Of a stretch of 64,000 nt of DNA, positions 12,108 through 36,512 are shown one piece after another (the stretch's first letter is position 1; the number at the start of each line of letters is the position of its first letter). Source of the stretch: Pseudomonadota bacterium (GTDB lineage Bacteria; Bdellovibrionota; Bdellovibrionia; Bdellovibrionales; Bdellovibrionaceae); NCBI GenBank assembly GCA_041178425.1, contig JBEGVH010000006.1:1-64000 (forward strand), in the 5' to 3' direction. The position numbers and the translations under genes were made by a program. Below the pieces are notes generated by a model that made no database searches, had not been told where the DNA came from, and saw only the letters and a program-made list of their open reading frames with translations.

Positions 12108-13073
12108 ATGATTTCAAAATTTATTGATCATCATTATCGTCATTTTAACGCGGCAGCATTAAAGGACGCAGCCATCGGCTATAAAGCCCATATCAATAAG
12201 GGTGGTAAAATGCTTGTAACTCTTGCGGGTGCAATGAGTACAGCAGAGTTGGGACTCTCTCTTGCGGAAATGATTCGCCAAGGCAAAGTTCACGCGATCA
12301 GCTGCACGGGTGCAAACTTGGAAGAAGACGTTTTTAATTTGGTGGCTCATAATCATTACGAGCGGATTCCAAATTATCGTGACCTCACACCCGAAGATGA
12401 AGCAAAGCTACTCGACAAGCATTTAAATCGCGTGACCGACACTTGCATTCCCGAAGAAGAGGCCATTCGTCGAATTGAAAAAGTCGTAATCGAAGAGTGG
12501 CAAAAAGCCGATCACGAAGGAAAAGCGTATTTTCCTCATGAATTCATGTACAAAATTCTTTTGTCTGGAAAGTTAAAGCCACACTACCAAATCGATCCAA
12601 AAGACTCTTGGTTATTGGCGGCTGCAGAAAAAAACCTTCCGATGGTTGTTCCTGGTTGGGAAGATTCAACGCTCGGAAATATTTTTGCTGGTCACTGTAT
12701 CAAGGGCGACATTAAGAATGTCCATACCGTCAAAGGCGGCATTCAGTATATGATCAACTTTTCCGAATGGTATATGTCTGCAAGTAAAGACAATACTGTT
12801 GGATTTTTTCAAATTGGTGGCGGTATCGCCGGTGATTTCCCAATTTGTGTGGTTCCAATGTTGAGCCAGGATTTGCATCACGATGATGTTAAGGTGTGGG
12901 ATTACTTCTGCCAAATCAGTGATTCGACAACGAGCTACGGTTCTTATTCTGGAGCGGTGCCAAATGAGAAGATCACTTGGGGTAAACTGGCGGTGGATTC
13001 GCCAAAATACATCATTGAGTCGGACGCTTCGATTGTTGCTCCATTGATGTTTGCGTACATCCTTGGTTGGTAA
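12108..13073 (+). CDS. Deoxyhypusine synthase-like protein (probably polyamine/homospermidine synthesis)
   Basis: TGANLEED, DSTLG, IGGG and SYSGAVPNEKITWGK motifs. Confidence 0.85.
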   Translation: MISKFIDHHYRHFNAAALKDAAIGYKAHINKGGKMLVTLAGAMSTAELGLSLAEMIRQGKVHAISCTGANLEEDVFNLVAHNHYERIPNYRDLTPEDEAKLLDKHLNRVTDTCIPEEEAIRRIEKVVIEEWQKADHEGKAYFPHEFMYKILLSGKLKPHYQIDPKDSWLLAAAEKNLPMVVPGWEDSTLGNIFAGHCIKGDIKNVHTVKGGIQYMINFSEWYMSASKDNTVGFFQIGGGIAGDFPICVVPMLSQDLHHDDVKVWDYFCQISDSTTSYGSYSGAVPNEKITWGKLAVDSPKYIIESDASIVAPLMFAYILGW

Positions 13074-13112: not shown

Positions 13113-14048
13113 CTAAAACAAGTCAAAAAGCTCTCTGAACGGTTCAGAGAGCTTTTTTTGTTCTAGTGCTTTCATAAATAGATGAAGGCCCCGAGGTTCA
13201 TTGCCATTTCCATGAACTAACACAATACTTCCGGGCTGCGGTTTGTCACCCTTGCTAAGCCAAGCATTGCTTCCTAAGGGAATGAGACCGAGTTCTTGGG
13301 TTGTAGCGAGAGCCTCTTCGTTGGCGACCAGTCCAGGAAATCGAAAAAAGATTGAGGGAGTGATTCCTTTTTGAATCAATAAAAGTTCATTGGTGAGAAT
13401 CTCTTTTCTCACGTCGCGTCCTTCAGAGAGAAGGTAGTTTTTTTCAATGGGAACGTCGGGGTAAACAGGGTGATTACGGCTGTGATTAACCCAGGTCACT
13501 GGAGAGTGAGCAAAGGTTTGTTGGAGCCAATGCCATTCTTCTTTATGTTTGATAATCCACAACCCGCTCACGGCGATGGCAACGGGCCATTCGCGCTCTT
13601 TAATCAGTTCAAAAAATGATTTGCTGAATTCGTGAGTTGAAGGGCAAAGGTCGACAGTGAGATAGGTGCCTGGCGAATGATCCTTGGCTCCGGTCAGTCC
13701 GTGATTTTGAAGTTTTCCATCGAAATTATTGTATCTTTGGAGAGCCAGTAGATAGGAGCTTGCTATTCGTTGATCGGAATAGCTGGGTGAGTTTTTGGTG
13801 AGAAGGATCGGGCGGCAATGCAGAAGCTTTTCCGTTGGCAGGATTTCAGTTTTGAATGAGTTTTCATCCACAACCCAGCGAAAGTTTTTACCCTCTCTCT
13901 TGAATTCTCTGAGGGTGATGACTTTTCGTTTTTGTTCTTCGCATCGAAGAGTCTTAACTCGATAAAATTGCACAGCTTCAGGAGACGAAGTTTTAACTTC
14001 TTGGGCCCAGATCCATTGCGAAATGAAGATAGAAATGAAAAACATCAT
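13113..14048 (-). CDS. Secreted polysaccharide deacetylase-like (NodB/CE4 fold) protein
   Basis: Signal peptide; LTVDLCP, NHSRNHP, FRFPG and VLVHGN motifs. Confidence 0.7.
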   Translation of the reverse strand: MMFFISIFISQWIWAQEVKTSSPEAVQFYRVKTLRCEEQKRKVITLREFKREGKNFRWVVDENSFKTEILPTEKLLHCRPILLTKNSPSYSDQRIASSYLLALQRYNNFDGKLQNHGLTGAKDHSPGTYLTVDLCPSTHEFSKSFFELIKEREWPVAIAVSGLWIIKHKEEWHWLQQTFAHSPVTWVNHSRNHPVYPDVPIEKNYLLSEGRDVRKEILTNELLLIQKGITPSIFFRFPGLVANEEALATTQELGLIPLGSNAWLSKGDKPQPGSIVLVHGNGNEPRGLHLFMKALEQKKLSEPFRELFDLF

Positions 14049-18757: not shown

Positions 18758-18768
18758 AAAAAGTTTTC

Positions 18769-18807
18769 AAAGGGAGGAGTTTCAAGAATCAAACTCCTCC
18801 CTTTCTT
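18769..18807 (+). terminator. Intrinsic terminator after lysS
   Basis: Perfect 14-bp stem AAAGGGAGGAGTTT / AAACTCCTCCCTTT. Confidence 0.75.
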
Positions 18808-18909
18808 CCAATTCGCTCTCAATTCATGAGTCCACTTGTGAAAAGGTTTTCGACTGGCTCTCTCGCTGATAGACCTCGACGTAGATGGTGATGTGCTGTT
18901 TAAGCTCGC

Positions 18910-18970
18910 CTCAAAATGAGAACACTGACCGTGTCTAGGTTTAAATCAGTTGTCTTCATCTCATTTTGAT
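18910..18970. promoter_or_regulatory. Pair of inverted CTCA-N3-TGAG-type operator-like sites
   Basis: TCAAAATGAGA (18911-18921) and its exact reverse complement TCTCATTTTGA (18959-18969). Confidence 0.4.
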
Positions 18971-19041
18971 CCAAAAAAAGCGTGGCACTGTTTTTGTTGG
19001 TTAAGATTTTGATTTCTCTCCAGATTCGCTTTCTTTGACAT

Positions 19042-19068
19042 TAAGGACCACATTCGACACGCCGATAA
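19042..19068 (+). promoter_or_regulatory. sigma28 (FliA) promoter
   Basis: TAAG-N15-GCCGATAA: consensus -10 with correct spacing. Confidence 0.75.
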
Positions 19069-19073
19069 GTTAA

Positions 19074-19763
19074 GTGATGCTCGATGCGGCGTGGAAAAAA
19101 AGACATTTTATCCAATTCTTAAATCAATTCTTAAACCGAATTGGAGAAAAATCTTTTTTTAAAAGAGCTAGTGTTGCCTTCTTAGGTAGTTTTCTCATGG
19201 CGTGTTCCATGGACATGAGTGTTGCACCTTCGAACGGCATGAATATCAAGGTAAATGATGCCATTGATGGTATTTACATTAACAAAACGAATGAGAAGTC
19301 TTTTGTCGTGAGTGGCACCTGTACGGTCGATGATCAGCCCGTCAAAATTACGGGGGCCGTCAACGCAGAAGCCCTTTGTCTCAATGAAAACTGGACAGTA
19401 ACCATGGATCTCTCTTCGTTGCCGGATGGAGAGGTTAAGCTTCTCATTGATCACGTCGATGAGTACGGGAACAAAGCCATCACCGAATCAAAGACCTATA
19501 TTAAAGATACCGTCCTCCCCATCGTTGCGATCAGTGCACCCAATGCCGAAACTTACCTCAATAATCTTCAAGTGGGTTCCGTGTCCGTGTCGGGGGCCTG
19601 CAGCGAAGACTCACATCCCGTTGTTATAACTGGCGCTGTTTCGGGCCATGAATTTGCCTGTTCAAACGGTGAGTGGTCGGGTGTTCTTGATTTTTCGCAG
19701 GCACCTGAAGGGCCTATTAGTTTTGTGGCTTCGCAAAAAGATACGGCCGGAAACCCAGTCTGA
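19074..19763 (+). CDS. N-terminal part of giant lipoprotein adhesin-like gene (lipobox plus Ig-like repeats), frameshifted near 19755
   Basis: FLGSFLMAC lipobox; repeats SGTC...W...D.AGN continue seamlessly into the +1 frame. Confidence 0.75.
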   Translation: MMLDAAWKKRHFIQFLNQFLNRIGEKSFFKRASVAFLGSFLMACSMDMSVAPSNGMNIKVNDAIDGIYINKTNEKSFVVSGTCTVDDQPVKITGAVNAEALCLNENWTVTMDLSSLPDGEVKLLIDHVDEYGNKAITESKTYIKDTVLPIVAISAPNAETYLNNLQVGSVSVSGACSEDSHPVVITGAVSGHEFACSNGEWSGVLDFSQAPEGPISFVASQKDTAGNPV

Positions 19764-22700
19764 ACTGGCGTCCCGAGGACTCAATAAGAAAACAACCTTA
19801 CCCATCTTATCTTTTGTTCTGCCAGTTCAGGGCGCTTTTGTGAATACTTTGAATCAATCGCAGTTCAATCTCTCAGGAACTTGCAGCGAAAGTGGTCAGT
19901 CCGTCATCATCACCAGTCCCTTTGCAGGCGCTGCCGATTGTGAAAATGGGAGTTGGTCCACTGCACTCAATCTCCTCACTCAGAATAATGGACCTATTGC
20001 TATTACCATCAAACAGACCGACACGGTTGGGAACGAGTCTTTGCCTCTTACGGTAGAGGTCACTAAAGATGATGAGGTTCCTCAAGTGTCGGTGGTGGCC
20101 GCTGAAGCGGAAGTGAATATTTTGAATGTCGAAGCCTTTGAAATATCCGGCACGTGTTCCGAGGAGAATCGTCCCGTGATCATCAGTGGGCCACTGAATG
20201 CAGAAGCTTTGTGCCAATCTGGAAGTTGGTCAAAGATCTTGGATATGACATCCGTTGCTGATGGGCCTTTGGTACTTGAGGTCAATCATGCGGATACAGC
20301 AGGTAACCCCGCAATCACGGCCTTGCTCACACTCGCCAAAGACACCTCTTTTGCCAACCTCACGATGAATGCGCTTAATGTGACGGAAGGTAATGAAGCC
20401 ACCATTACCCTGACGCTCTCAAAACCTTCGTTGGTTCCAATCAGCTTTAAGGTGCAATCGGCCGATGATGTGGCTAAGGCCGGGAGTGATTTTGTCGCCA
20501 TTCCTCAGAAAACGATCAGTCTTCCGGTAGGGACGACTACGGCCACCATACCACTCACTACGAATGAGGACACAATTTTTGAAGGCCCTCAGACATTCAA
20601 ATTAGTGTATTCCGATCTGGTGAATGTGACGGCTAACCCAAGTGCGTCCATCATCACCATTCTTGATAACGAGGTGGCACCTAACTTAACTATTGGTGAT
20701 GCAACGGTCACTGAAGGCGGCGTCCTCGAGTTTACGGTTCAAGCCTCCTACGCCTCTGAATCCAACATTACTTTTGACTGGGGAACAGCGAATGGGACCG
20801 CTGTGGGCGGCAGCGATTTTGTGGTGGGCACAGGCACGGCGAGTATTCTCGGTGGGCAAAGTTCGGTTAAGATTACGGTGAACACAACGGATGATTTTAA
20901 GTATGAAGGAAACGAGACTCTTTATGTGAATCTCTCGAACTCACTGGTTTGTCCAATCCTCGATGGGCAAGGTGTAGGAACTATTTCTGATAATGATCCA
21001 AAGCCAACAATTGCGATCGCTGACGTTTCTGCTATCGAAGGGACTGTGGCTAATTTTGTCGTAAGCCTCAGTTCGGCCTCTGGTAAACCTATATCGTTTA
21101 CAGTCAACACAACGGCTGGTTCGGCTCAGCAAGGATTCGACTATGCGGGTGTGGTAGGTCAATCATTTACGATTCCAGCTGAAACTTTGAGTATCAATGT
21201 GCCCGTCTCGCTGTTGAATGATTCCTATTTTGAAGGTGATCAACAGTTTACTGCAAAAATTAGCGCCGTGAGTGATGGATTGGCGATCACCCGCGAGACA
21301 GCAACGGGCACAATCACCGATGATGAAGGGCCTCCGACGCTGAGTGTTTCTGACAGTTCCGCGAGCGAAGGCGGCGTATTGAAGTTTGCCGTGTCGTTGA
21401 ACGGACTCACTGATCATGATGTAACATTTAGTTGGGCATCGTCTGATGGTACAGCCTTGGCGGGTTCTGACTATGTCGCCAATAGTGGAACTAATATTAG
21501 CATTCCCCAGGGAACTTTATCGAAAAATATTCTTGTGAGCACCTCGACCGACGCCACCATGGAAAATGCTGAGACTATGAAAGTGACTTTATCTTCTGTC
21601 GTGGGCGCAACCGTTGCGGATGAAAGAGGCGATGGTAAAATCATTGATCCCTCCAGTTCCGCCGTTCTGAGTATCGCCGAAACCGAAGTGACAGAGGCAG
21701 GTGTGGCCATCTTCACGGTTTCTCTCACCCGCCCCCTTGATGACGATGTCACCTTTGATTGGACGACTTCTGAGGTGACGGCCAAAGCGGGGCTGGATTT
21801 TACTACGAGTTCGGGCACGACGGTTTTAATTGCGGCAGGAACCACGAGCACGACGTTGAGTGTTCCAACGTTGAATGATTCTAAAGATGAGGCAGATGAA
21901 ACCTTCAAGGTGACCATTAGCAATGTGGTGAATGCGTATCTTGGTGCCAGTGTCGGCATCGGCACGATACATGATGATACCGATGCTCCTCCAACAATTT
22001 CGCTGGGCGGTAATGTCACGGCCGTTGAAGGAGAGGCTCTTAGCTTTACAGTAAATCTTTCGGCGCCAAGTGGACAGGATATCTCGTTTGACTGGTCGAC
22101 TACATCAGGCACGGCCTTTAAAGATTTGGATTTTGAGGCTGTTGCCGGCGATAATATTGTTTTAACGGAGGGTACAACATCCTACACAATCCTTATTCCA
22201 ACTCTCCAAGACACCCTTAATGAAGACACCGAACAATTCACTCTCACTCTTTCAGACCTCAAAAATGCGACGGGTTCGGGGTTGATTCGCACGGGAACCA
22301 TCAATGACGACGGCGATTCTGCCCCTCAAGTTGCTGTGAATGATATTTCGGCCACAGAGGGGCAACCCCTTGTTTTTGTGATAAGTCTCGATAAAGCCAG
22401 CGGAAAAACAGTGAGTGTTAAAGCGGTGACAAGCAATGAGACGGCGATGGGTGGTAGTGACTTTGTGGCCTTGGCATCAACCACCTATGTTTTTGCTCCC
22501 GGTGATACGACTATTCAAGTTCCCATTTCGACGATGGCGGATGGTAAATACGAAGGATTGCAAACCTTTAAACTCCTTTTGGACTCACCAGTCGGCGCAA
22601 CCATCGAAGATCAACAGGGCGTGGGTACAATCATTGATAGCGAGGCCATACCGAGTCTGACGATAAGTTCAGTTTCAGTGAACGAGGGCAGTCATGCTCT

Positions 22701-25700
22701 TTTTACCGTTACGTCCTCTGGACTCACCGAAAGCAATATTACCTTTAATTGGGTAACGATGGATGGTACAGCCATCGCCCCCGACGACTATACATCGGTG
22801 GCGCAAACCCAAGGGGTGATCACCGCGGGATCCCTAAAAACAACACTGACGGTCAGCACCGCTGCCGATTCCCTCGATGAGAGCGATGAAAAATTAGCCG
22901 TAAAACTATCGAGCCCCTCAAATGCGGTGATTTCTGTTAATCAGGCCGAGGCGACCATTGTTGATCCGACGAAGCCTTTGCTCTCGGTGGTCGAATCCAC
23001 GAGTGCCACCGAAGGAAGTTCGTTGGTTTTCACGGTGTCTTTGTCAAAAACATCAGCAAGCAATATTACTTTCAACTGGGCGACAAGTCATCTCACGGCG
23101 GGCGCTGCTGATTACACGGTGGGTACGGGAACAAAAACAATTCCCGCGGGCAGTCTCTCTACAACAGTTTCGATTAATACCACTCAAGACACTATTTTTG
23201 AGACCGATGAAACATTGGCTTTTACCGTCACTTCGAGCGCGGTTGGTGTTTCTGCAGGGGAGAGTGTCGGAACCATTTTAAATGACGATTCGGCGCCATC
23301 GATCACGATCAATGATGTTACCCTAGAGACCGAAGGCGCCTCAGCGACCTTTACGGTCACGCTTTCTAAAACGAGTTCGGTGAATACGAGTGTGGAGTTT
23401 GAAACAACCAATGGCACAGCCTTGGCGGGTTCGGATTTTAACTATCAAAAAGGCCAACTCACGATTCCCCCTGGGCAGCTCACCGGTACGATCACGGTGC
23501 AAACGGTGAATGATACTTTGAGCGAACCGATAGAAGATTTTTTTATCACACTCACGAATCCGGGCAATGCGACGATCAACGATGGACTCGGAAAAGCCAC
23601 CATTCCTAAGAGCGACAATAAACCACCCGTGGCCTACGATCAAAATTTCACCCTGGCATCAACATCGACCAACGGGGTTAGTCTCACACTTAACAATATC
23701 GATCCCGAAAATGATCCGCTCTTAATGACTCTCGTTGCAAATCCTCAGCATGGATCGGTTGTGGGTGTTCCACCAACGATCACGTATTTGCCTTCGAACG
23801 GTTATACGGGGCCTGATAGTTTTCGTTATTATGTGTCGGATGGTGAGTTTAAATCGAATGAGGCGACGGTGACCTTAAACATCACCACGCAAATTAATTA
23901 TTTCAATTATGCCTCTCAGCCCGTGTACGATAAAACAGCTTGGTTAGATGTGGTGATCAATCCCCTAGACACAAACACATTCTATGCCATCGATATTCTT
24001 GGCTACGTCAAAAAAACCACTGATCAAGGCGCCACCTGGAAAGTTCTTTGCAAAACTATGGAGGGGCGGCCTTCAAGTCCTGATTATGTTTATTCGCAAC
24101 TCGAAGTGGCAGCCAACGATGGCCAGGCTTATGTTCAGTCTCAGGGGTATATACAGCTGGTGAGTGACAAAAACGGTGGTTTATGCACAAGGGTGAACCC
24201 CTTGAACAACGGAGTCTCATACCATTCAAGTGGCACCACAGGGCGAGCCGTCGTTATACATCCGACGAGTGGGAATCTTTATATTTTTGCCGGCAATAAA
24301 TTGTATAAGTCTCGCGACAAGGGCACCTCGTGGGATGTTGTCTTCACCTACTCCGTTGAAGGTAAAAGTTTTTATTATGGGTCAGTTTTTGTGGATCCCT
24401 TGGATGAACAAAAAATGTCTCTTTTCTTTATGGTCCTCACTAATAATAACACCACATGGGAGTACCCTGTCTATCGTTCTAACGACGGCGGTGGAACATT
24501 TTCGTCCTCGAATAGCCTTGGCAACTTTATTTTAAATGTCTTCAAAACGGCCGCGAAGCCGAGCGAAGTGTACGCGACACAACAAGGAGGTTATAAATCC
24601 ACAGACAACGGTCTCACCTGGACGTCTTCATCGGCTCACTACAATTACGAAAGAGATGTGGTGCTTCTGCCCAGCGGCGTGGCTTATCGAATTATGAAGG
24701 TTGATCGCACGGCCGTCATTCAGAAGGCCCCCGATTTTAGCAATCCCACGTGGACGGCGCTGAGCGGTGGAACCTTCAATCTTGAGCAAACCGACACTCG
24801 CGACAGCATCGATGTTGTTGGCAATACCATTATTGCTACCATTCAATACCAAATGTATCTGAGTAAAGACGGCGGCGCCACCTTTACGCGCATTGAAAAC
24901 GAAGGGCCTTCGAGTATTTTTTTAACGGCGGCGGTGGCCTTTGCCAGTGTCGACTCAAAAACCATCTACGCTTTAACCAAGTTCTGGGATGTGTTTAAAT
25001 CCACCGATGGTGGCAATACCTTTGCTCTTAAACACACCACCAACGACATTACTAATACCAAGGGGCGGCTGCAGGTTCATGCCATGGATCCCAATCGTTA
25101 TCTGGCGACGCAGCCCGGGTACCAGCAATCTCCGGGTGTGGCTTCTCAGAGAACAATCCGATCGATTGATGGCGGTGCTACGAATACGGCCTCTGATTCC
25201 TTGGGCTACAGTTATTATAATTATTGGAATCTTTCGCTGGCTTTGAGCCCGGTCGATCTCAATAAAACCTATTTTATTACCGGCGGGCCAATAGGTGTGA
25301 GTAATGATTTTATGGCAACGAAGGTTGACGATCCGGGTGGGTCCTTTACAGGGAGCCACAACAGGTCCTACCTCTCCGACGTGTCGGTGATCTCCGCCTT
25401 CAACACCAATATCGTGTGGATTGTCGAAAACAACGCTTTAATGAAATATGATCATTCGCTTCGATGGAAAATGGACTACAGTGCAAAGACGGGCCTCGGG
25501 ACGACCATTGCCACCATTGAGTACTATCGCATTTCAGAAACCGAATATAAACTTTTGGCGATTGGCACGAACGGGCAGATTGCCGCGAGCACCGATGAAG
25601 GAGAACATTTTACCCCGATTGATAACTCAACAAAATCGAGTTGTTCGCGCCGTCTGTTTGCCTCAAGCCCTCTTAATCGAGACATTATGATCACCGGTTG

Positions 25701-28700
25701 CGATGGCGGTTCAAGGGTGGATATCACCTCAAATGCGGGCAAAACGTGGACCACCTACAACGATCTCAATTGCCCCATTCAGGGTCTCACGTTTTCGCCC
25801 AAGTTCGTATTAATTGCCTGTCATAACCAAACGCCCATGCGCTTTCCTTATCAGAGCATCGAACCAACCCCGGTCAAGGTGCAATGGGCGCAGGCCTCTC
25901 AAAGTGTGAACGAAAACGTGAATGCGGTGGGCGCAACGTTAAATTTAGATACGGCCAGCAATCAGATCGTAGATGTGCATTACAAGATTGCGGGAACGTC
26001 TACTTTTAATCAGGATCATAACCTTGTCGATGGAGTTCTATCATTTGCTCCTGGAGAAACAACAAAAACTGTTTATTTTAACATCATCAACGATGCCTTT
26101 GTTGAAAGTTCCGAAACGGTCATTCTTAAAATAGACAAAGTGGTCAATGCTCAGTTGGGCGCCCATGTCACCCACACTGTCACTATCAATGCTGACTCTG
26201 CCGATAATCCAAAGATGACCTTATCGAGTCTGTCCACTTATTTTAGTGCAGTGGGTGGGGGTGGGAGCCTCACATTGACGGGAAGTAATTTTGCGAACGG
26301 AGTGACGGTGAAGATTGACGGCGCTGCGTGCGCGGTCACCGCCACACTTTCGACATCTATTACCTGTGGGCCGATTCCTGCTCATGCTTCGGGTACGGTA
26401 AAATTGGTTGTGCAGAATCCCGATGGGCAAACGGCCTCTGAAACCTTTACTTACTACCAAGAAAGCACAGCTTTAACGCTCACATCCTCGGCGACAACGA
26501 TCAAGAGCGGGGAGGCGTTCAGTGTGAGAGTGAAAGTGGTCGATGCTTTTGGCTCGGTGGTGGGGAGTGATTCCACCACGAGCATTACTCTCAGCTTGGG
26601 GACTAACCCCGGAGGGGCCTTAACGGGCACTCTCACCAAGACAGTCACTCACGGGGCGGCGCTGTTTTCAGATCTAAAACTCGATAAAGCCTTGAGTGGC
26701 TATGTTTTAGCCGCCACGGCTTCAACGGGAGCCACCGTCAATAGTTTGGAACTCACGGTGATCCCCGGCGCCCCGCACTCTCTGCTCGTCCAAACACAGC
26801 CTTCGTCGACGGTGGGGCAAAATACGGTTTTAGCCACGCAACCCATTTTTCACGTGCTCGATAGCGCCGGGAATCTAGTTGTTGCCGATAACACCACTCG
26901 TGTGACCCTGGTTGAGACGAGCAACACCGATCGGATTTTGGGAACGGCTACGAGAACGGCCGCTTCGGGAGTGGTGAGTTTTTCTGGTATAAGAATCGAT
27001 TTGACAGGATTGGTGGATCGCGCCGTCACGCTCACAGCCACAGGCTCCGAGGGCGTATTGCCAGTCACCACGAATCCCATAACGGTTTTGGCAAACAATC
27101 GCACCCCTGTGGCCTCCGATCAGACCATTGATTTTATTTATGACGATCGAAACCAAGTGGGGCATCAGTTGACGCTTTCAACTTATGATCCTGATGGCGA
27201 TCCATTGACTGCAACGATTATCAGGGCGCCACTCCATGGCACTCTGGAGGGCACTCCACCGGCCCTGCGCTATGTCGTATCGGGCGATTATTTAGGATCG
27301 GATTCGTTTCAGTACAAGGTCTCCGATGGTCAGTTGGAATCGTCGGTGGCGACGGTGAGTCTTAATTTTACCAAGAGAATTGCTATCCTCGACGTGGCGA
27401 AGTCTTCGAATGGCGGCCGTTATTGGGTGAAAGTAGCGGTCGATCCTAACACAGCCAATCGAATTATTGGGCTGGGTGATGACCTAATGATTTATGAAAC
27501 CACTAATGGTGGCACCACATGGACAGCTCGTTGTTCGACGCCGAGTAACAGCTATAATGATCTCTATAATCTGAATTTGTTTATTTCTAAGGGGCCCGAT
27601 GCCACCGCTTATTTCGGGAATCAGTACATTTTTTATAAAGTAATACCTGGCGGAGGAGCCTGTCCGGCGGCTCAGCCCTATTCGAATAACTATTATATGT
27701 ATTCCACGCGCTTTGCCAACGGTGCCGATACCACCAAGAGCAGTGGCGCTCTTTATGTTTGGAATCAACTTGCCATCGGTGGTGTTTATGGGGGGCGCGT
27801 GGTCACATCGACGGATCAGAGCGCTTCTTGGAATGTAGTGAGTATGCAGCCCGCAATGAAATCGCCGATGGGGTTACTCATCATCAACCCACACAATGAA
27901 AATGAAATGCTGGTGACCCAGCTGAGCAACGCACCGACCGATGGTATTTACAGGAGCACCGATGGAGGAGTGACATTCTCTTTGAAGGCAACAACAGGGT
28001 TTACCAGCCTCACGACCCATGTCAAATATGACCCGGGCCATAGTGGCTACGTCTATTCGAACACTGGTTATTATTCGTCGAATGGGGGGAGTACTTGGTC
28101 CAATGATGCCCGCTACTCAATGCCAGAGGACTGGGATATCGATAATAATGGGGCTGGCTACAAGGCCACCTATTCGGGCGCTAATCTATTGATTCAAAAA
28201 GCACCAGATATGAGAAATCCTGCGTGGGCCACATTATCGGGTGGCACCATTGCGAACACCGCCAGTGGGACCCCAGAGTGCTCGATTGCGGTGTCAGGAA
28301 ACGGCGCAACGATTGCGGTTCTTGTACAAGATCGCTTTTACCTTAGCACTGATAGTGGCGCGACCTTTAAACGAATCAATTTTAGTGCGGCCACTGTTCT
28401 GCCGGTTGCGAGTGTCGACACCGCGGATGGAAACACCCTCTTTGCCGTTGATAGTTACTGGAGAGTTTTTAAATCAACGAATACAGGATCAAGCTGGGTT
28501 TATGTTTTTTCAACGGGCAACGGGATCAGGCAGATGGGTTACGGGACGGCGCGCCTGCGTGTGGTCGATAGCACTCATGTTTATATCCGTAGCGGAAATG
28601 AGTATGGTGCTACAGGTTTTATTTCGACGTCCGATGGATTCGCATCGGTCGTGAAAGACAACATCAATGAGGTGCCAGCCCACTATTACTACCCCGACTT

Positions 28701-29343
28701 CATCAATATTGCTGATCCCAATTTTTATGCGACGGGTGTTAATACAAACTATCGAAAAACGGCGAATGCGGGCGCTACTTTTACGGATACCACGGTGTCT
28801 GCGTTTGGACATTACTATTGGGGATCTGCAAATTATACTCAGGTCAATCGCGAGGGTTGGGTTAACCCAGCGAATACCAATAAGGTCTGGATGGAGGTTA
28901 AATCACTTTTTGAGGTGGATATTAGTAATAATACCTCCAACGATCTCACCAGTCGCATTCCGAACTTCACCGATGTGGCCGGATTCACGGTAGTGAAAAA
29001 AACCAATGGAACCTACCGTTTGTGGGCGGTGAATGTGAACGGACAAATGGCCTATTCCGACGACGGGGCGGCAACTTTTACTAGCTTTGCCCCCACCACG
29101 GCGTCTCCGGGGGTGACGTGCGCCGATAAACGTTATCTTGAGGTGCTCTCGAATAATCAAAATGTGATGGCCATGGCATGCCAAAATTCGCAGATCGTCT
29201 CCTATTCGAAAGATGGCGGCCTGACGTGGGCGGATGCCACTGTTTCAAATTGTGGAATTATTGATATGGCGCTGACAAACCAAGGTAAAGTCTACCTGTC
29301 ATGTGGTTATTATAGTCCTGGTGTTTCTGTGGATTTTGAATAG
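19648..29343 (+). CDS. Main body of giant surface adhesin-like protein: Ig-like repeats, 10+1 Calx-beta, Big_9/cadherin-like, IPT/TIG, two Asp-box beta-propeller regions
   Basis: Repeats of EG...F.V.LS...T..GTA..G.DF...D...E..ETF; PVA.DQ...P.HG...G.DSF.Y.VSDG twice; about 20 S.D.G.TW/F boxes. The true reading frame starts at about 19757. Confidence 0.85.
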   Translation: MNLPVQTVSGRVFLIFRRHLKGLLVLWLRKKIRPETQSELASRGLNKKTTLPILSFVLPVQGAFVNTLNQSQFNLSGTCSESGQSVIITSPFAGAADCENGSWSTALNLLTQNNGPIAITIKQTDTVGNESLPLTVEVTKDDEVPQVSVVAAEAEVNILNVEAFEISGTCSEENRPVIISGPLNAEALCQSGSWSKILDMTSVADGPLVLEVNHADTAGNPAITALLTLAKDTSFANLTMNALNVTEGNEATITLTLSKPSLVPISFKVQSADDVAKAGSDFVAIPQKTISLPVGTTTATIPLTTNEDTIFEGPQTFKLVYSDLVNVTANPSASIITILDNEVAPNLTIGDATVTEGGVLEFTVQASYASESNITFDWGTANGTAVGGSDFVVGTGTASILGGQSSVKITVNTTDDFKYEGNETLYVNLSNSLVCPILDGQGVGTISDNDPKPTIAIADVSAIEGTVANFVVSLSSASGKPISFTVNTTAGSAQQGFDYAGVVGQSFTIPAETLSINVPVSLLNDSYFEGDQQFTAKISAVSDGLAITRETATGTITDDEGPPTLSVSDSSASEGGVLKFAVSLNGLTDHDVTFSWASSDGTALAGSDYVANSGTNISIPQGTLSKNILVSTSTDATMENAETMKVTLSSVVGATVADERGDGKIIDPSSSAVLSIAETEVTEAGVAIFTVSLTRPLDDDVTFDWTTSEVTAKAGLDFTTSSGTTVLIAAGTTSTTLSVPTLNDSKDEADETFKVTISNVVNAYLGASVGIGTIHDDTDAPPTISLGGNVTAVEGEALSFTVNLSAPSGQDISFDWSTTSGTAFKDLDFEAVAGDNIVLTEGTTSYTILIPTLQDTLNEDTEQFTLTLSDLKNATGSGLIRTGTINDDGDSAPQVAVNDISATEGQPLVFVISLDKASGKTVSVKAVTSNETAMGGSDFVALASTTYVFAPGDTTIQVPISTMADGKYEGLQTFKLLLDSPVGATIEDQQGVGTIIDSEAIPSLTISSVSVNEGSHALFTVTSSGLTESNITFNWVTMDGTAIAPDDYTSVAQTQGVITAGSLKTTLTVSTAADSLDESDEKLAVKLSSPSNAVISVNQAEATIVDPTKPLLSVVESTSATEGSSLVFTVSLSKTSASNITFNWATSHLTAGAADYTVGTGTKTIPAGSLSTTVSINTTQDTIFETDETLAFTVTSSAVGVSAGESVGTILNDDSAPSITINDVTLETEGASATFTVTLSKTSSVNTSVEFETTNGTALAGSDFNYQKGQLTIPPGQLTGTITVQTVNDTLSEPIEDFFITLTNPGNATINDGLGKATIPKSDNKPPVAYDQNFTLASTSTNGVSLTLNNIDPENDPLLMTLVANPQHGSVVGVPPTITYLPSNGYTGPDSFRYYVSDGEFKSNEATVTLNITTQINYFNYASQPVYDKTAWLDVVINPLDTNTFYAIDILGYVKKTTDQGATWKVLCKTMEGRPSSPDYVYSQLEVAANDGQAYVQSQGYIQLVSDKNGGLCTRVNPLNNGVSYHSSGTTGRAVVIHPTSGNLYIFAGNKLYKSRDKGTSWDVVFTYSVEGKSFYYGSVFVDPLDEQKMSLFFMVLTNNNTTWEYPVYRSNDGGGTFSSSNSLGNFILNVFKTAAKPSEVYATQQGGYKSTDNGLTWTSSSAHYNYERDVVLLPSGVAYRIMKVDRTAVIQKAPDFSNPTWTALSGGTFNLEQTDTRDSIDVVGNTIIATIQYQMYLSKDGGATFTRIENEGPSSIFLTAAVAFASVDSKTIYALTKFWDVFKSTDGGNTFALKHTTNDITNTKGRLQVHAMDPNRYLATQPGYQQSPGVASQRTIRSIDGGATNTASDSLGYSYYNYWNLSLALSPVDLNKTYFITGGPIGVSNDFMATKVDDPGGSFTGSHNRSYLSDVSVISAFNTNIVWIVENNALMKYDHSLRWKMDYSAKTGLGTTIATIEYYRISETEYKLLAIGTNGQIAASTDEGEHFTPIDNSTKSSCSRRLFASSPLNRDIMITGCDGGSRVDITSNAGKTWTTYNDLNCPIQGLTFSPKFVLIACHNQTPMRFPYQSIEPTPVKVQWAQASQSVNENVNAVGATLNLDTASNQIVDVHYKIAGTSTFNQDHNLVDGVLSFAPGETTKTVYFNIINDAFVESSETVILKIDKVVNAQLGAHVTHTVTINADSADNPKMTLSSLSTYFSAVGGGGSLTLTGSNFANGVTVKIDGAACAVTATLSTSITCGPIPAHASGTVKLVVQNPDGQTASETFTYYQESTALTLTSSATTIKSGEAFSVRVKVVDAFGSVVGSDSTTSITLSLGTNPGGALTGTLTKTVTHGAALFSDLKLDKALSGYVLAATASTGATVNSLELTVIPGAPHSLLVQTQPSSTVGQNTVLATQPIFHVLDSAGNLVVADNTTRVTLVETSNTDRILGTATRTAASGVVSFSGIRIDLTGLVDRAVTLTATGSEGVLPVTTNPITVLANNRTPVASDQTIDFIYDDRNQVGHQLTLSTYDPDGDPLTATIIRAPLHGTLEGTPPALRYVVSGDYLGSDSFQYKVSDGQLESSVATVSLNFTKRIAILDVAKSSNGGRYWVKVAVDPNTANRIIGLGDDLMIYETTNGGTTWTARCSTPSNSYNDLYNLNLFISKGPDATAYFGNQYIFYKVIPGGGACPAAQPYSNNYYMYSTRFANGADTTKSSGALYVWNQLAIGGVYGGRVVTSTDQSASWNVVSMQPAMKSPMGLLIINPHNENEMLVTQLSNAPTDGIYRSTDGGVTFSLKATTGFTSLTTHVKYDPGHSGYVYSNTGYYSSNGGSTWSNDARYSMPEDWDIDNNGAGYKATYSGANLLIQKAPDMRNPAWATLSGGTIANTASGTPECSIAVSGNGATIAVLVQDRFYLSTDSGATFKRINFSAATVLPVASVDTADGNTLFAVDSYWRVFKSTNTGSSWVYVFSTGNGIRQMGYGTARLRVVDSTHVYIRSGNEYGATGFISTSDGFASVVKDNINEVPAHYYYPDFINIADPNFYATGVNTNYRKTANAGATFTDTTVSAFGHYYWGSANYTQVNREGWVNPANTNKVWMEVKSLFEVDISNNTSNDLTSRIPNFTDVAGFTVVKKTNGTYRLWAVNVNGQMAYSDDGAATFTSFAPTTASPGVTCADKRYLEVLSNNQNVMAMACQNSQIVSYSKDGGLTWADATVSNCGIIDMALTNQGKVYLSCGYYSPGVSVDFE

Positions 29344-29399
29344 CAAAACGATGGGAGCTTAAAAAAGTACCTTAACAAAAGAAACTTAAGTGCAGCTCG

Positions 29400-30236
29400 C
29401 TATTTGTTGTTGAGCGACTCCCTCAAACAAGAATGAATGCGGTGACATTGTTGATCGAACGCTCGCCGATCATCTTCGGAGAGGGCCGTGCGGCTCCGAA
29501 GAGGCACAAATATTCGAGGAAAGTCCGTATTATCTAAATCAATCGTTTCTTCAGAAAACCCATTCCCATTTTCAGACGGGAGTTTGACTCTCACCCACAT
29601 ATGATCCCAACTGGAGGCGATAGTCGCGGTGAACGTCTCGTTAATGACGTCAGAGTCTTGGTGGTTTACTTGATTGAGGCTCCATTTTAAGAGTTCTGCG
29701 AATTGGCGGCAAACACCTCCGTAAGAGGTCTCAGCGCTTCTTTCGAGGGTGTCTTTGGGGTTAGTACTGAGAATCGGCATTTTCGAGGTGCGATCGTATT
29801 TGCCCTGATATTGATTCACGAGCCTGTAGGTTTGATGAATTCTCTCGTATCGATTCTTGATGGATCTGATGGCTTTTAATTGGTCAGAAAAATCTCTACG
29901 AACGTCTTCAAGACGGAGACTTTCTGCACCTGAGAGATACTCAGCGATTTTTACGCTGACCGGTCCCAAGACGGGAATATCCCAATTCTTTTGTGCAAAG
30001 CGGGCATGGTTTTGAAGTGGGCCAGGGTCAGCAGAATGAATGTCGAGGAGTTCCACGCAAGAAAAGGAGGTGGCATCAAGAAGTTCTTGGCCAGTCATTG
30101 ATGATTCGGCGATGGTGCGCAGAAATTCTGGTAACTGAGCTTCATTTTCAAAACAGGTTTGTTCTGAAGTCACAGCGCTCCAGCCCGTTTTGGGGAACCA
30201 CAGCAAAAAAACTAGAGTGAAAAAGATCAATTTCAT
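29400..30236 (-). CDS. Secreted transglutaminase-like (papain-fold Cys-His-Asp) protein
   Basis: Signal peptide from ATG 30236; GGVCRQFAELL, DHMWVRV and DLDNT motifs. Confidence 0.6.
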   Translation of the reverse strand: MKLIFFTLVFLLWFPKTGWSAVTSEQTCFENEAQLPEFLRTIAESSMTGQELLDATSFSCVELLDIHSADPGPLQNHARFAQKNWDIPVLGPVSVKIAEYLSGAESLRLEDVRRDFSDQLKAIRSIKNRYERIHQTYRLVNQYQGKYDRTSKMPILSTNPKDTLERSAETSYGGVCRQFAELLKWSLNQVNHQDSDVINETFTATIASSWDHMWVRVKLPSENGNGFSEETIDLDNTDFPRIFVPLRSRTALSEDDRRAFDQQCHRIHSCLRESLNNK

Positions 30237-30353
30237 TGGTCCCGTATAGCAGAGATTGAATCTATTTGGAGACAAACAGTTTTATCGTGGGTATAAACAC
30301 AATTTATAGTAATAAATTCAGGACAATGGCGTTAAGAGTGACGTTCCTTGGCC

Positions 30354-30905
30354 TTATTCCTTTTGTTTAGTCATAATGAATTTAATAAAAAAACCATCAG
30401 CGTCTTTTCGCATAAGTTGTAGAAAAGTGGCTTGTTTTTTTTGCGAGAGCCTTTGAAGACGGTAGAGAAACAGATGGGAGGTCCAATAAAAATCCCACGA
30501 GGACGCCTTGATATGGGTGTCGAGGCTAAACACCTCTTGCGAAGAAATTTCAGAGTATTCCAGAGACGGTGCGTTCGGGCGGGTCGTGAAGAGGCAGCCG
30601 GCCCTCAAGGGTAAGCTCGTATTAAAAAAACCAAATTGGTGATGGGGTTTGCTTTCTATGTAAATGGCGGAGCATCCGGGGAGTGCTTTTGCTTTTAATT
30701 CTGCAGCCGCATAAATGTCTTTGGGTGTGGAAAGGTCTTTCTGATCCAAAAGCGGTACTAAATACAGCACCGGGTAGAGCATGGAGTTGATGGCGAGAGC
30801 CTTAGCTTGTTTTTTCTCCTGATAAACAAGGAAGCTCATGCTTCCAAAACCAAAAAGGAATAGAAGCGTTGTCAGCCAGGGAATCGTTATGGACTTTTTC
30901 ATCAA
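30354..30905 (-). CDS. Hypothetical membrane-anchored protein
   Basis: N-terminal TM helix; start overlaps the stop of the HD-GYP gene. Confidence 0.55.
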   Translation of the reverse strand: MMKKSITIPWLTTLLFLFGFGSMSFLVYQEKKQAKALAINSMLYPVLYLVPLLDQKDLSTPKDIYAAAELKAKALPGCSAIYIESKPHHQFGFFNTSLPLRAGCLFTTRPNAPSLEYSEISSQEVFSLDTHIKASSWDFYWTSHLFLYRLQRLSQKKQATFLQLMRKDADGFFIKFIMTKQKE

Positions 30906-34382: not shown

Positions 34383-36512
34383 ATGAAAAAAGCTCATGTT
34401 CTAGTAGGGCTATCTTTGGGGTTGGCATTGGGAACTGCTAACTCTGTATGGGCTGGCGATAAATTATTTCTTCGCTCTGGCGTTGTTAATCCTAAAACTT
34501 TCAATCCTGGTTATGCCGCTACTTTGGGCGTCAATGGGCTCAGTGAATCCATTGTGCAGTTCAAATCGATTCCAGGTGAATCAGATAAAGCGGCTCTTAT
34601 CTCTCGCGGACTTCAAGTTTTTAAATACCTTCCAGACGACGCCTACATTGTACGCGGCAGCCAAGAAAGCCTCGCGGCGGCAAAACGCCTCTCTCAAGTG
34701 AATGCAGTTATTCCATACACTGCAGCGATGAAGATGAGTCCTGATTTTGGAGCCTTCAGCGTATTCACTGCCAAAAAGAACGAAAATGTTTTGATTAAAA
34801 CTTTCAAAGCAACGGATACCAATGCCGTTGTCGAAGGAATGAATAAGATATCATCTGATATTCGCATTCTTAATGCTCAAGGCAACTCTATTTTAGCCAA
34901 CGTCCCTCAAGACACTGTGCTAGTTGTCGCTGGATTGGCTGGTATCGAACACGTTCAACCATATGTAAAAGTAAAGCTCTGGGGCGATTTCGATCTTATG
35001 GAAGGATCTGGTTCTAATCCTCCAGCGACTCCCGGTGATTACTCAGATCTTTCAGGAACAGAAGACGGAACGCGCGTGATGAATTTTACTGCGGGTTGGT
35101 CTCAAGGATTGACGGGTCGCGGACAAATCGTTGCGATGGCAGACACTGGGGTTGATACTGGTGACGTAAATACAATTCATGACGACTTAAAAGGTTCTAT
35201 CAAGAGTGGTTACGCTTACGGAATGTTTGCTCGTACCTGGGAAGATCCAATGGGTCATGGAACTCACGTTGCGGGATCAATTGTAGGTCGCGGTACTGCT
35301 TCAGGCGGTCGTATTCGTGGGGGCGCTTACGAGGCTGGCTTCGTTGCTCAAGGGATGTGGAGCCCAACTCTCGAAAACCTCACAGTTCCACCACAGTTGA
35401 AGACACTATTTGAAGCGGCCTATAATGATGGCGCTCGCATTCATTCAAACTCTTGGGGTGCGGCTCGTAACTTTGGAGCGTATGATAACTTCGCGGTTCA
35501 GGTTGATGAATATGTTTGGGAACACCCTGATATGCTTCCTATCTTTGCTGCTGGTAATAGCGGAACAGACAAAGATAAAGATGGTCGTATCGATGCAAAC
35601 TCTATTAGCTCTCCAGGAACAGCGAAGAACTGTTTAACTGTTGGTGCTTCTGAAAACGTAAACTCTCACGGTGGAATTCAGGCGCAGATTAAGAAATTGC
35701 GTGCAGCGGCGGAAGCGTGGCCTGCAGAGCCAATTTCAAGCGACTATTTGTCAAACAACATGAACGGTTTGGCGATGTTCTCTTCGCGTGGTCCTACTCT
35801 TGATGGCCGTACAAAGCCAGATGTTGTTGCTCCAGGCACAAACATTTTGAGTCTTCGTTCATCGGTTGAAGGCGCTAGTGATATGTGGGGAGCTTACAAC
35901 AAGCTTTACACCTATGCTGGTGGTACTTCGATGGCAACGCCCCTCACAGCAGGCGCGGCAGCTCTCGCTCGTCAAAAATTAGTGGGAATGGGTGAAAGTA
36001 ATCCATCAGCAGCTCTCGTGAAAGGGATGTTAATGCATACAGCTGTTGATATGTTCCCCGGTCAATTCGGTGAGGTGGGTGCAGCTCGTGGACAAGAACT
36101 TCTTACACACAGACCAAATTCTGACGAAGGATATGGCCGTGTTGACGTGGCTCGAGTTTCTCAACTTCCTTTGCGCGTGATCGACGAAAAAGCGGGAGTA
36201 GCTCAAGGGCAGGAGTTGGCTTATCAAATCACTCTTAATCAGCGTCCAGGAAAATTCTGGGTCACGCTTGTTTACTCAGACGCTCCGGCGGCGGCGAGCG
36301 CGGCGAAGACTCTTGTGAATGATTTGACATTGGTGGTGACAAATCCTCAAGGTCAGAAGCTTGCGGTTAATGATGCTGTTAACAATGGCGAAATGATTGA
36401 AATCGAAAACGCTACCGAAGGAACTTACACAATCACTGTTAAAGGTGATCGCGTTCCTCAAGGCAAAGACGGCAAACAGCCATTCGCTCTTTTGATTTCT
36501 TCATCGAACTAA
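34383..36512 (+). CDS. Secreted S8 subtilisin-like protease (KP-43-like) with C-terminal beta domain
   Basis: Signal peptide; DTG, HGTHVAG and GTSMATP triad; AAGN oxyanion motif. Confidence 0.92.
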   Translation: MKKAHVLVGLSLGLALGTANSVWAGDKLFLRSGVVNPKTFNPGYAATLGVNGLSESIVQFKSIPGESDKAALISRGLQVFKYLPDDAYIVRGSQESLAAAKRLSQVNAVIPYTAAMKMSPDFGAFSVFTAKKNENVLIKTFKATDTNAVVEGMNKISSDIRILNAQGNSILANVPQDTVLVVAGLAGIEHVQPYVKVKLWGDFDLMEGSGSNPPATPGDYSDLSGTEDGTRVMNFTAGWSQGLTGRGQIVAMADTGVDTGDVNTIHDDLKGSIKSGYAYGMFARTWEDPMGHGTHVAGSIVGRGTASGGRIRGGAYEAGFVAQGMWSPTLENLTVPPQLKTLFEAAYNDGARIHSNSWGAARNFGAYDNFAVQVDEYVWEHPDMLPIFAAGNSGTDKDKDGRIDANSISSPGTAKNCLTVGASENVNSHGGIQAQIKKLRAAAEAWPAEPISSDYLSNNMNGLAMFSSRGPTLDGRTKPDVVAPGTNILSLRSSVEGASDMWGAYNKLYTYAGGTSMATPLTAGAAALARQKLVGMGESNPSAALVKGMLMHTAVDMFPGQFGEVGAARGQELLTHRPNSDEGYGRVDVARVSQLPLRVIDEKAGVAQGQELAYQITLNQRPGKFWVTLVYSDAPAAASAAKTLVNDLTLVVTNPQGQKLAVNDAVNNGEMIEIENATEGTYTITVKGDRVPQGKDGKQPFALLISSSN

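Follow-up and report, generated by a model that had tools for sequence, protein, structure and literature searches.

Large bacterial adhesins are usually described as type I secretion system (T1SS) proteins with repeats-in-toxin (RTX) motifs or as autotransporter proteins, and how predatory bacteria recognise and hold their prey is only partly understood. Several described systems resemble parts of the gene considered here. Calx-beta and Big_9 repeats serve as extenders in the adhesins LapA and BapP, and BapP of Pseudoalteromonas tunicata joins both repeat types to a propeller, its loss lowering biofilm formation, as set out in PMC12153261. Glycoside hydrolase family 74 (GH74) enzymes hold xyloglucan in a cleft, according to PMC9103125, and Vps10 domains are given in PMC2716378 as non-enzymatic binders. 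The chimeric fibres of Bdellovibrio bacteriovorus are presented in PMC10769870 as lying on the predator surface, carrying variable tips and having a proposed role in prey recognition. Here we describe a giant gene at 19074-29343 of a 64,000-nucleotide stretch of contig JBEGVH010000006.1 (the window), from an assembly (GCA_041178425.1) placed in the Bdellovibrionaceae. On balance, the window copy probably encoded a giant lipoprotein adhesin, 3,422 amino acids (aa) long when intact, and was inactivated recently; it would belong to an uncharacterised multi-headed family with a predicted adhesive function.

An earlier reading, made from the DNA letters without database searches (the sequence-only reading), had assigned 19074-29343 to one protein of ~3,420 aa. 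This could not be upheld: the interval is 10,270 bases long, a length not divisible by three, and so is not a single open reading frame (ORF); two overlapping frames were found in it. Frame 0 is terminated by the TGA at 19761-19763 after 229 aa, its last residues being DTAGNPV, and the open run of the +1 frame extends over 19630-29343 (3,237 codons). The second Ig-like repeat is interrupted close to its end and resumes in the +1 frame as ELASRGLNKKTTLPIL. When one C is dropped from the CCC at the frameshift site, the stretch reads by eye as DTAGNQSELASRGL and a single ORF of 3,422 codons extends from the GTG at 19074. The distance from GN to P-I/Q-V/L is 15 residues in repeats 1 and 3, and removal of one base restores exactly 15 in repeat 2. 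Public gene sets (JGI and NCBI) carry a 228-aa or 188-aa fragment plus a 3,206-aa gene. The 5' fragment (P0001) matches the NCBIfam model Ca_tandemer at 8.8e-11, under the model's cut-off. As a query against longer proteins it gave no match over the 402-2000 aa that were searched, a range that would not reveal an intact allele on record. With its signal peptide cut away by the one-base frameshift, the body should not be exported, and the organism of this genome probably makes no such fibre.

To place the break in other populations, contigs from four public sequencing runs (X1-X4; Logan) were compared over 19400-20100. X1 (study P1) is possibly the source of the window, X2 and X4 come from another study (P2) and X3 from a third (P3). 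The CCC of the window was found in contigs of X1, X2 and X4, at depths of 13.6, 21.5 and 4.4, respectively. X2 and X4 depart from the window at 19848 and, because of this difference, are not the window's own data. In X3, one contig has one base fewer at 19754, which is the intact allele. Since the break is present in the contigs of several populations and one contig lacks the extra C, the break is a real allele and an intact allele exists.

A second interruption is indicated in the strain sampled by X2. On its 66,976-base contig the body is called as two proteins: P0009, which stops at residue 2073 of the window's body protein P0002 (2072/2073 identities), and P0010, which begins at residue 2127 (1066/1067 identities). 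Codon 2074 of the window, TAC at 25981-25983, lies inside the eleventh Calx-beta unit and is one change away from a stop; from the gene calls we infer that the X2 strain carries a nonsense mutation there. One disabling change in the window and a likely second in a sister strain, in a 9.7-kb frame that is otherwise open, point to recent inactivation and continuing decay, not to a programmed event. With an intact allele in one population and a second interruption elsewhere, the gene therefore appears to be dispensable and in the course of being lost in the lineage.

Apart from its continuity, the architecture proposed by the sequence-only reading was recovered in full. It had listed an LMAC lipobox, about four Cys-paired Ig-like repeats, ten tandem Calx-beta repeats with another between the heads, two Big_9 units, one TIG, two Ig-like units and two Asp-box regions of ~650 aa, with no RTX or T1SS tail. 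The hydrophobic N-terminal segment, whose context in the translation is KRASVAFLGSFLMAC, ends in FLMAC, with Cys44 counted in the frame that starts at 19074; the motif fits what we take to be the PROSITE-type lipobox rule. Each of the four Ig-like repeats found by self-built profile has its Cys pair. Pfam gives ten Calx-beta stretches and the self-built profile 11 units in total; the Big_9 and TIG units were found by Pfam and the two Ig-like units by self-profile, in the order claimed. The stalk thus comprises ~20 beta-sandwich modules (4 disulfide-type Ig-like, 11 Calx-beta, 2 Big_9, TIG and 2 Ig-like). The RTX motif GGxGxD has 0 matches in the protein, and the C-terminus is a propeller. Over 20000-28000, inside the giant gene, GC amounts to 0.48-0.51 with almost no GC skew (-0.02 to +0.06); the gene's flanks are mostly 0.42-0.48 GC with a skew of ~+0.1. 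This difference may reflect a Thr/Ser/Gly/Ala-rich composition or a foreign origin.

The two heads, ~655 aa each and 29% identical to each other, contain 8 strict Asp-boxes apiece (S/T-x-D/N-x-G-x-x-W/F) and score 74.8 and 44.2 bits against Pfam Sortilin-Vps10 (PF15902), above its gathering score of 33. AlphaFold2 models were built with a 24-sequence alignment. The head 1 model has a predicted local distance difference test score (pLDDT) of 82.2 and a predicted template modelling score (pTM) of 0.78; for head 2 the values are pLDDT 80.8 and pTM 0.76. When the models were compared with the PDB by Foldseek, the best 19 rows listed for each head were all GH74 xyloglucanases or a GH74 cellobiohydrolase. 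The best E was 7.7e-20 for head 1, with a template modelling score (TM-score, normalised to query length) of at most 0.61 among the rows listed, and 5.1e-19 for head 2. By VIA-align, residues 341-653 of head 1 match many 7-bladed propellers (Z 20-21, root-mean-square deviation (rmsd) 3.5-3.9 A) and residues 8-320 match the 7-bladed Asp-box protein DAIP (5fzp, Z 20.0). Over its whole length head 1 matches the GH74 chains 7kn8_A (Z 20.1, 560 aligned), 6p2m_A (Z 19.8, rmsd 6.3, 562 aligned) and 5fkt_A (Z 19.7, 568 aligned), and PorZ 5m11_A (Z 19.6, rmsd 5.5 A, 539 aligned). The models thus make each head a double propeller of GH74/PorZ type, with two 7-bladed Asp-box propellers in tandem (7+7). 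The two Asp-box propeller heads proposed from the sequence are supported by AlphaFold2, Foldseek and VIA-align as to type, but each consists of two 7-bladed propellers and not of a single one.

A 10-bladed Vps10 propeller was considered and rejected: the models split 7+7, and sortilin chains on head 2 reach a TM-score of only 0.15-0.23. The Pfam Vps10 label is misleading on blade number. Matches in the ESM Atlas were to generic Sortilin-Vps10 / BNR clusters only, and the window's genome has no third head.

Conservation was assessed on 46 full-length heads, cut with a head-1 profile from 28 proteins; P0003, P0008, P0009 and P0010 were excluded as the same gene as that of the window. The best-kept columns are the Ser, Gly and Trp/Phe of the Asp-boxes, some Gly and Tyr, and six Cys (C53, C98, C584, C603, C627 and C643), each kept in 39-46 of the 46 heads. 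Because paired Cys occur in every Ig-like repeat of the stalk and the six Cys columns are conserved across the heads, the protein is likely to fold in an oxidising compartment.

These features suggest how an intact protein might work. It would cross the inner membrane by Sec, be processed by signal peptidase II and be lipid-anchored by Cys44; if the sorting rule of E. coli applies in this phylum, the Ser at +2 would send it on to the outer membrane. The stalk, stiffened by Ca2+ bound to the Calx-beta array, would project from the cell, with head 1 about two thirds along it and head 2 at the tip. Each head would grip, but not cut, a polymer ligand lying in the cleft that its two propellers form. 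This ligand would most likely be a prey or biofilm surface glycan, in a predator the lipopolysaccharide (LPS) or capsule of the prey or biofilm glycans. Since proteins are the ligands of Asp-box propellers in sortilin and DAIP, the ligand could conceivably be a protein instead. The lipid-anchored, double-headed stalk of the sequence-only reading agrees with the order of the domains, with a lipobox in all three of the giant relatives described below and with adhesin-type partner domains; it probably does not hold for the window copy itself, which is frameshifted.

Several points weigh against this account. The intact allele is supported by a single contig of 448 nt at a depth of 8.9, and the X2 stop is deduced from gene calls, not from the strain's DNA. 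No export or flipping partner for the giant lipoprotein was found in scans of its neighbours, and it is an assumption that a lipoprotein can be exposed on the cell surface in this phylum. As to the heads, the head-1 family profile matches GH74 chains down to E 2.7e-24, and the nearest NCBIfam model, F510_1955, matched at 65 and 56 bits, far under its cut-off of 175, is named glycosylhydrolase. The best-kept acids outside clear Asp-boxes, D76 (37/46) and E543 (35/46), lie one in each propeller and could form a catalytic pair in a subset of heads. Finally, our comparison of catalytic residues is indirect, being made from one local HMMER alignment and from conservation and not from a residue-level superposition.

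The last of these points bear on whether the heads are active GH74-like glycoside hydrolases, so that the intact protein would be a cell-anchored enzyme cutting beta-glucan of prey, biofilm or plant origin bound in the cleft. The profile matches, the weak F510_1955 matches and the D76 and E543 columns speak for such an enzyme, as does the fact that GH74 gives the best whole-length fold matches for both heads. We nevertheless consider it unlikely. No acidic column is invariant among the 46 heads, and the 'degrading' option of the sequence-only reading accordingly finds no support. D426, kept in 38/46, sits in a degenerate Asp-box, S-I-D-G-G-A-T. The single HMMER alignment in blade order, to residues 29-169 of NkGH74 (6p2l_A), sets the Asp of GH74 'RTDVGG', a catalytic residue, opposite Q84 of head 1, in a family column that is variable (N8 S8 H6 Q5 D5). 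The check that had been proposed for GH74 catalytic residues, two Asp that GH74 conserves in the cleft between its propellers, gave a divided answer, the invariant acid missing and the 'RTD' column variable on one side, the two well-kept acids and the indirectness of the comparison on the other. By their PDB titles, complexes of PoGH74 and OXG-RCBH were trapped with mutations at D60 and D465, respectively.

What is more, a phmmer search with head 1 against PDB sequences gave 0 matches at E <= 0.01, and the profile's GH74 matches are made up of 4-6 separate blade-level stretches that are out of order. The GH74 chains found as fold matches share 12-17% identity with the heads. In 8 relatives the partner domains are He_PIG, CshA_repeat, Cadherin_5, Big_9, RibLong, DUF4215 and Lcl_C, and none of the 8 has a carbohydrate-binding module (CBM), a catalytic module or any other carbohydrate-active enzyme module beside its heads. 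PorZ, which we take to be a non-enzymatic double propeller, fits head 1 about equally well. Given no invariant acid in 46 heads, a variable 'RTD' column, non-collinear profile matches and adhesin-type partners, binding of a ligand in the inter-propeller cleft seems more likely than hydrolysis.

A binding protein might also face inwards, its propellers holding the cell's own envelope polymers or prey-derived periplasmic material. Most proteobacterial-type lipoproteins do face the periplasm, and no surface-lipoprotein translocon or other export partner was found beside the gene. We regard a periplasmic location as improbable, however, since the periplasm would be several times too narrow for a stalk of ~20 beta-sandwich domains. 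In addition, Calx-beta, Big_9, TIG and Ca_tandemer-like domains are modules of extracellular adhesins, LapA and BapP being the examples treated in PMC12153261. 

If the frameshift were an assembly or sequencing artefact, the organism would make the full 3,422-aa protein. The site is indeed a short homopolymer, one X3 contig has CC and the remainder of the 9.7-kb frame is undamaged, but an artefact is very unlikely: three-base runs are not an error-prone context for short reads, the CCC recurs in the window, in three runs of two studies and in both public gene sets, and two of those runs are not the same data as the window. A functional break, by programmed +1 ribosomal frameshifting or by phase variation at the C-run toggling the fibre, is the least credible explanation and hardly to be expected, for although both alleles occur in nature and indels in homopolymers switch large surface adhesins on and off in other bacteria, known contingency tracts are far longer than 2-3 C, no Shine-Dalgarno-like stimulator or known slippery +1 motif was seen by eye before GTC TGA, and the second interruption in the X2 gene calls fits decay better than switching.

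Relatives of the heads are rare among the genomes sampled. The window's lysyl-tRNA synthetase (LysRS) is 88-92% identical to that of Pseudobdellovibrionaceae / Bdellovibrionota metagenome-assembled genomes (MAGs), and DNA of the window was found in freshwater and lagoon metagenomes. Among 1.84 billion representative proteins, head 1 had 1,658 matches at E <= 0.001 and 13 at E <= 1e-30. No head was detected at E <= 1e-10 in any of 40 relatives (4 from the genus, 20 from the family, 16 from the order). Of 401 genomes sampled evenly across the phylum, 4 matched at E <= 1e-15, the window genome included. The other three carriers all belong to one family, of which 100 genomes were sampled, and have open frames of 3,799, 3,629 and 3,660 codons; these Bacteriovoracaceae-type giant genes all begin with a lipobox (LFFAAC, IVTSC and SLLAAC). 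Across the 28 proteins of the head family the lipobox pattern was present in 13, and many of the others start inside a domain and look N-terminally truncated. Of 10 family clusters looked up, 2 bear an organism name, both Bacteriovoracaceae. A pattern search with head 1 yielded 22 matches and no relative among genome contigs, and a search at near-equal protein lengths yielded 6, all generic BNR proteins. Among 167 collected proteins, no canonical GH74 sequence was picked up by the 'TDVGG'-type motif that occurs in NkGH74. The open-access literature searched contained no description of a double-propeller giant lipoprotein family.

In two of the carriers, G309 and G390, a gene of 431/438 aa, 32-33% identical between them, lies divergently just upstream of the giant gene. 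Neither a Pfam family nor a counterpart in the window's genome was found for it. A C-terminal Phe, as found in its product, is typical of outer-membrane barrels, and the product may help to export or anchor the giant protein.

The giant gene and two small ORFs make up a stretch between lysS and a gene for an HD-domain protein (Table 1). In a same-genus MAG (locus L005, LysRS 91% identical) the order is DeoC-LysRS-HD-RecG-S8, with 38 bases from LysRS to HD, and neither the giant gene nor P0159 nor P0160 has a match in that locus; because HD follows LysRS so closely there, we take 18758-30901 to be an accessory insert. No homologues of P0159 or P0160 were found beside the giant genes of relatives. 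The site after lysS varies among four same-genus MAG loci. HD-RecG directly follows LysRS in L005 only; L004 has ORFs of 1,035 aa and 556 aa there, and L003 and L015 have other genes. The site looks like a hot spot for accessory genes.

The neighbours of the giant gene are lysS, HD, recG, a subtilase gene and the two ORFs without a family, the flanks being housekeeping genes. None of the 17 neighbouring ORFs scanned has a recognised Pfam family of a secretion-system component. Promoter and terminator scans around the giant gene were at chance level, no tRNA was found in the window and no sign of a mobile element was seen at the insert's edges. A long perfect inverted repeat, AAGGGAGGAGTTT ... 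AAACTCCTCCCTT, was seen by eye at 18768-18812, right after the lysS stop; it is probably the lysS terminator and is absent from the list of the simple terminator scan. Two genes past the insert lies a subtilase of 709 aa (Peptidase_S8, E 3e-45; 34383-36512, + strand), 78% conserved in L005. Further upstream, a deoxyhypusine synthase-like gene at 12108-13073 (+ strand; PF01916, E 4e-41) adjoins a polysaccharide deacetylase gene at 13113-14048 (- strand). Deoxyhypusine synthase is uncommon in bacteria.

Table 1. Coordinates of the giant gene, its modules and the associated features; positions refer to the window unless another locus is named.
Feature	Position	Strand	Remarks
5' fragment P0001	19074-19763	+	frame 0, 229 aa; signal peptide, Ig-like repeat 1 and most of repeat 2
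Gene body P0002	19762-29343 including stop (coding to 29340)	+	+1 frame, 3,193 aa
Frameshift site	19754-19756	+	CCC in the window, CC in the intact allele
Lipobox L-M-A-C, residues 41-44	19194-19205	+	Cys44 is the predicted lipidated first residue; +2 is Ser
Four Cys-paired Ig-like repeats, ~80 aa	19275-20346	+	self-profile, E 1e-35 to 1e-43
Ig-like repeat units 1-4	19275-19511; 19551-19757 (continues beyond the break); 19834-20073; 20107-20346	+	self-profile; Cys pair in each
Ten tandem Calx-beta	20347-23559	+	Pfam PF03160, E 2e-91, 10 stretches; P0002 residues 196-1266 by self-profile
Big_9 / Cadherin_5 unit 1	23617-23886	+	Pfam and self-profile
Head 1, 653 aa	23893-25851	+	modelled tandem pair of 7-bladed Asp-box propellers, residues ~12-334 and 341-653
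Eleventh Calx-beta, between the heads	25921-26136	+	self-profile, E 1.1e-21
IPT/TIG	26218-26454	+	Pfam PF01833, E 4.7e-10
Two Ig-like units	26461-27042	+	self-profile
Big_9 / Cadherin_4 unit 2	27097-27372	+	Pfam and self-profile
Head 2, 655 aa	27376-29340	+	modelled second tandem 7+7 Asp-box pair; reaches the stop codon
Accessory insert, 12.1 kb	18758-30901		between lysS (ends 18757) and the HD-domain gene (stop 30902)
P0159, 291 aa	29400-30275	-	signal-peptide-like N-terminus; no Pfam family; matched in 2/25 relatives
P0160, 183 aa	30354-30905	-	N-terminal hydrophobic segment; no Pfam family; matched in 0/25 relatives
Divergent 431/438-aa gene	L089 11869-13164; L093 9165-10481	-	signal-peptide-like start, C-terminal Phe

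In this family, which is rare and whose named members come from predatory lineages, repeated double-propeller heads are carried on a calcium-type stalk with a lipoprotein anchor. Should the heads bind prey glycans, the family would make up a new class of fibre for recognising prey, and the GH74 fold would have a use without catalysis. A bolder proposal, which we offer as a speculation much more likely to be wrong than right, is that giant lipid-anchored fibres bearing two or three GH74/PorZ-like double-propeller heads are used by predatory Bdellovibrionota alone to grapple prey by clamping its surface glycans, and that their loss by frameshift or their retention tracks the prey fed on. The naturally occurring intact and broken alleles provide a ready-made comparison. 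In practical terms, the window gene should be annotated as a frameshifted pseudogene rather than as a 3,206-aa protein.

Set beside known systems, the heads come closest to the GH74 xyloglucanases (5fkr, 2cn2, 6p2m and 7kn8), which likewise form two 7-bladed Asp-box propellers from an unbroken run of blades. This 7+7 organisation is the 'type 3' of Quistgaard and Thirup, known so far from GH74 by the account in PMC2716378. The heads differ from GH74 in being shorter (653-655 aa, as against ~685-776 aa for the GH74 chains listed), in having three conserved Cys pairs and in being placed in a lipoprotein stalk, not beside CBMs; no acid pair is invariant in the 46 heads aligned, and the sequence matches obtained are blade-by-blade. 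On the models, the heads would share the GH74 fold, which is a statement on fold and not on membership of the family.

PorZ (5m11) of the type IX secretion system (T9SS) of Porphyromonas gingivalis is a double propeller like the heads and, by its entry title, a cell-surface protein. It reportedly binds anionic LPS. Unlike the giant protein, PorZ ends in a T9SS C-terminal domain and does not belong to a fibre. Sortilin/Vps10 shares the Asp-box blade type with the heads but forms a single 10-bladed propeller. The fibres of Bdellovibrio bacteriovorus, reportedly trimeric, can be likened to the giant protein by their proposed role; no relation in sequence or fold was seen, and no search aimed at one was made. 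The giant Ca2+-dependent Bap/RTX adhesins (LapA, SiiE, BapP), on the other hand, have the same kind of long Calx-beta or Big_9-type extender. In contrast to them, the giant protein has no RTX nonapeptide and no recognised T1SS family among its scanned neighbours; it ends in a propeller, is anchored by an N-terminal lipobox and carries 7+7 Asp-box pairs twice, one of them internal. The giant gene is best described as modular-adhesin-like: T1SS/RTX features are absent, and the stalk would work like those of the giant Ca2+-dependent adhesins.

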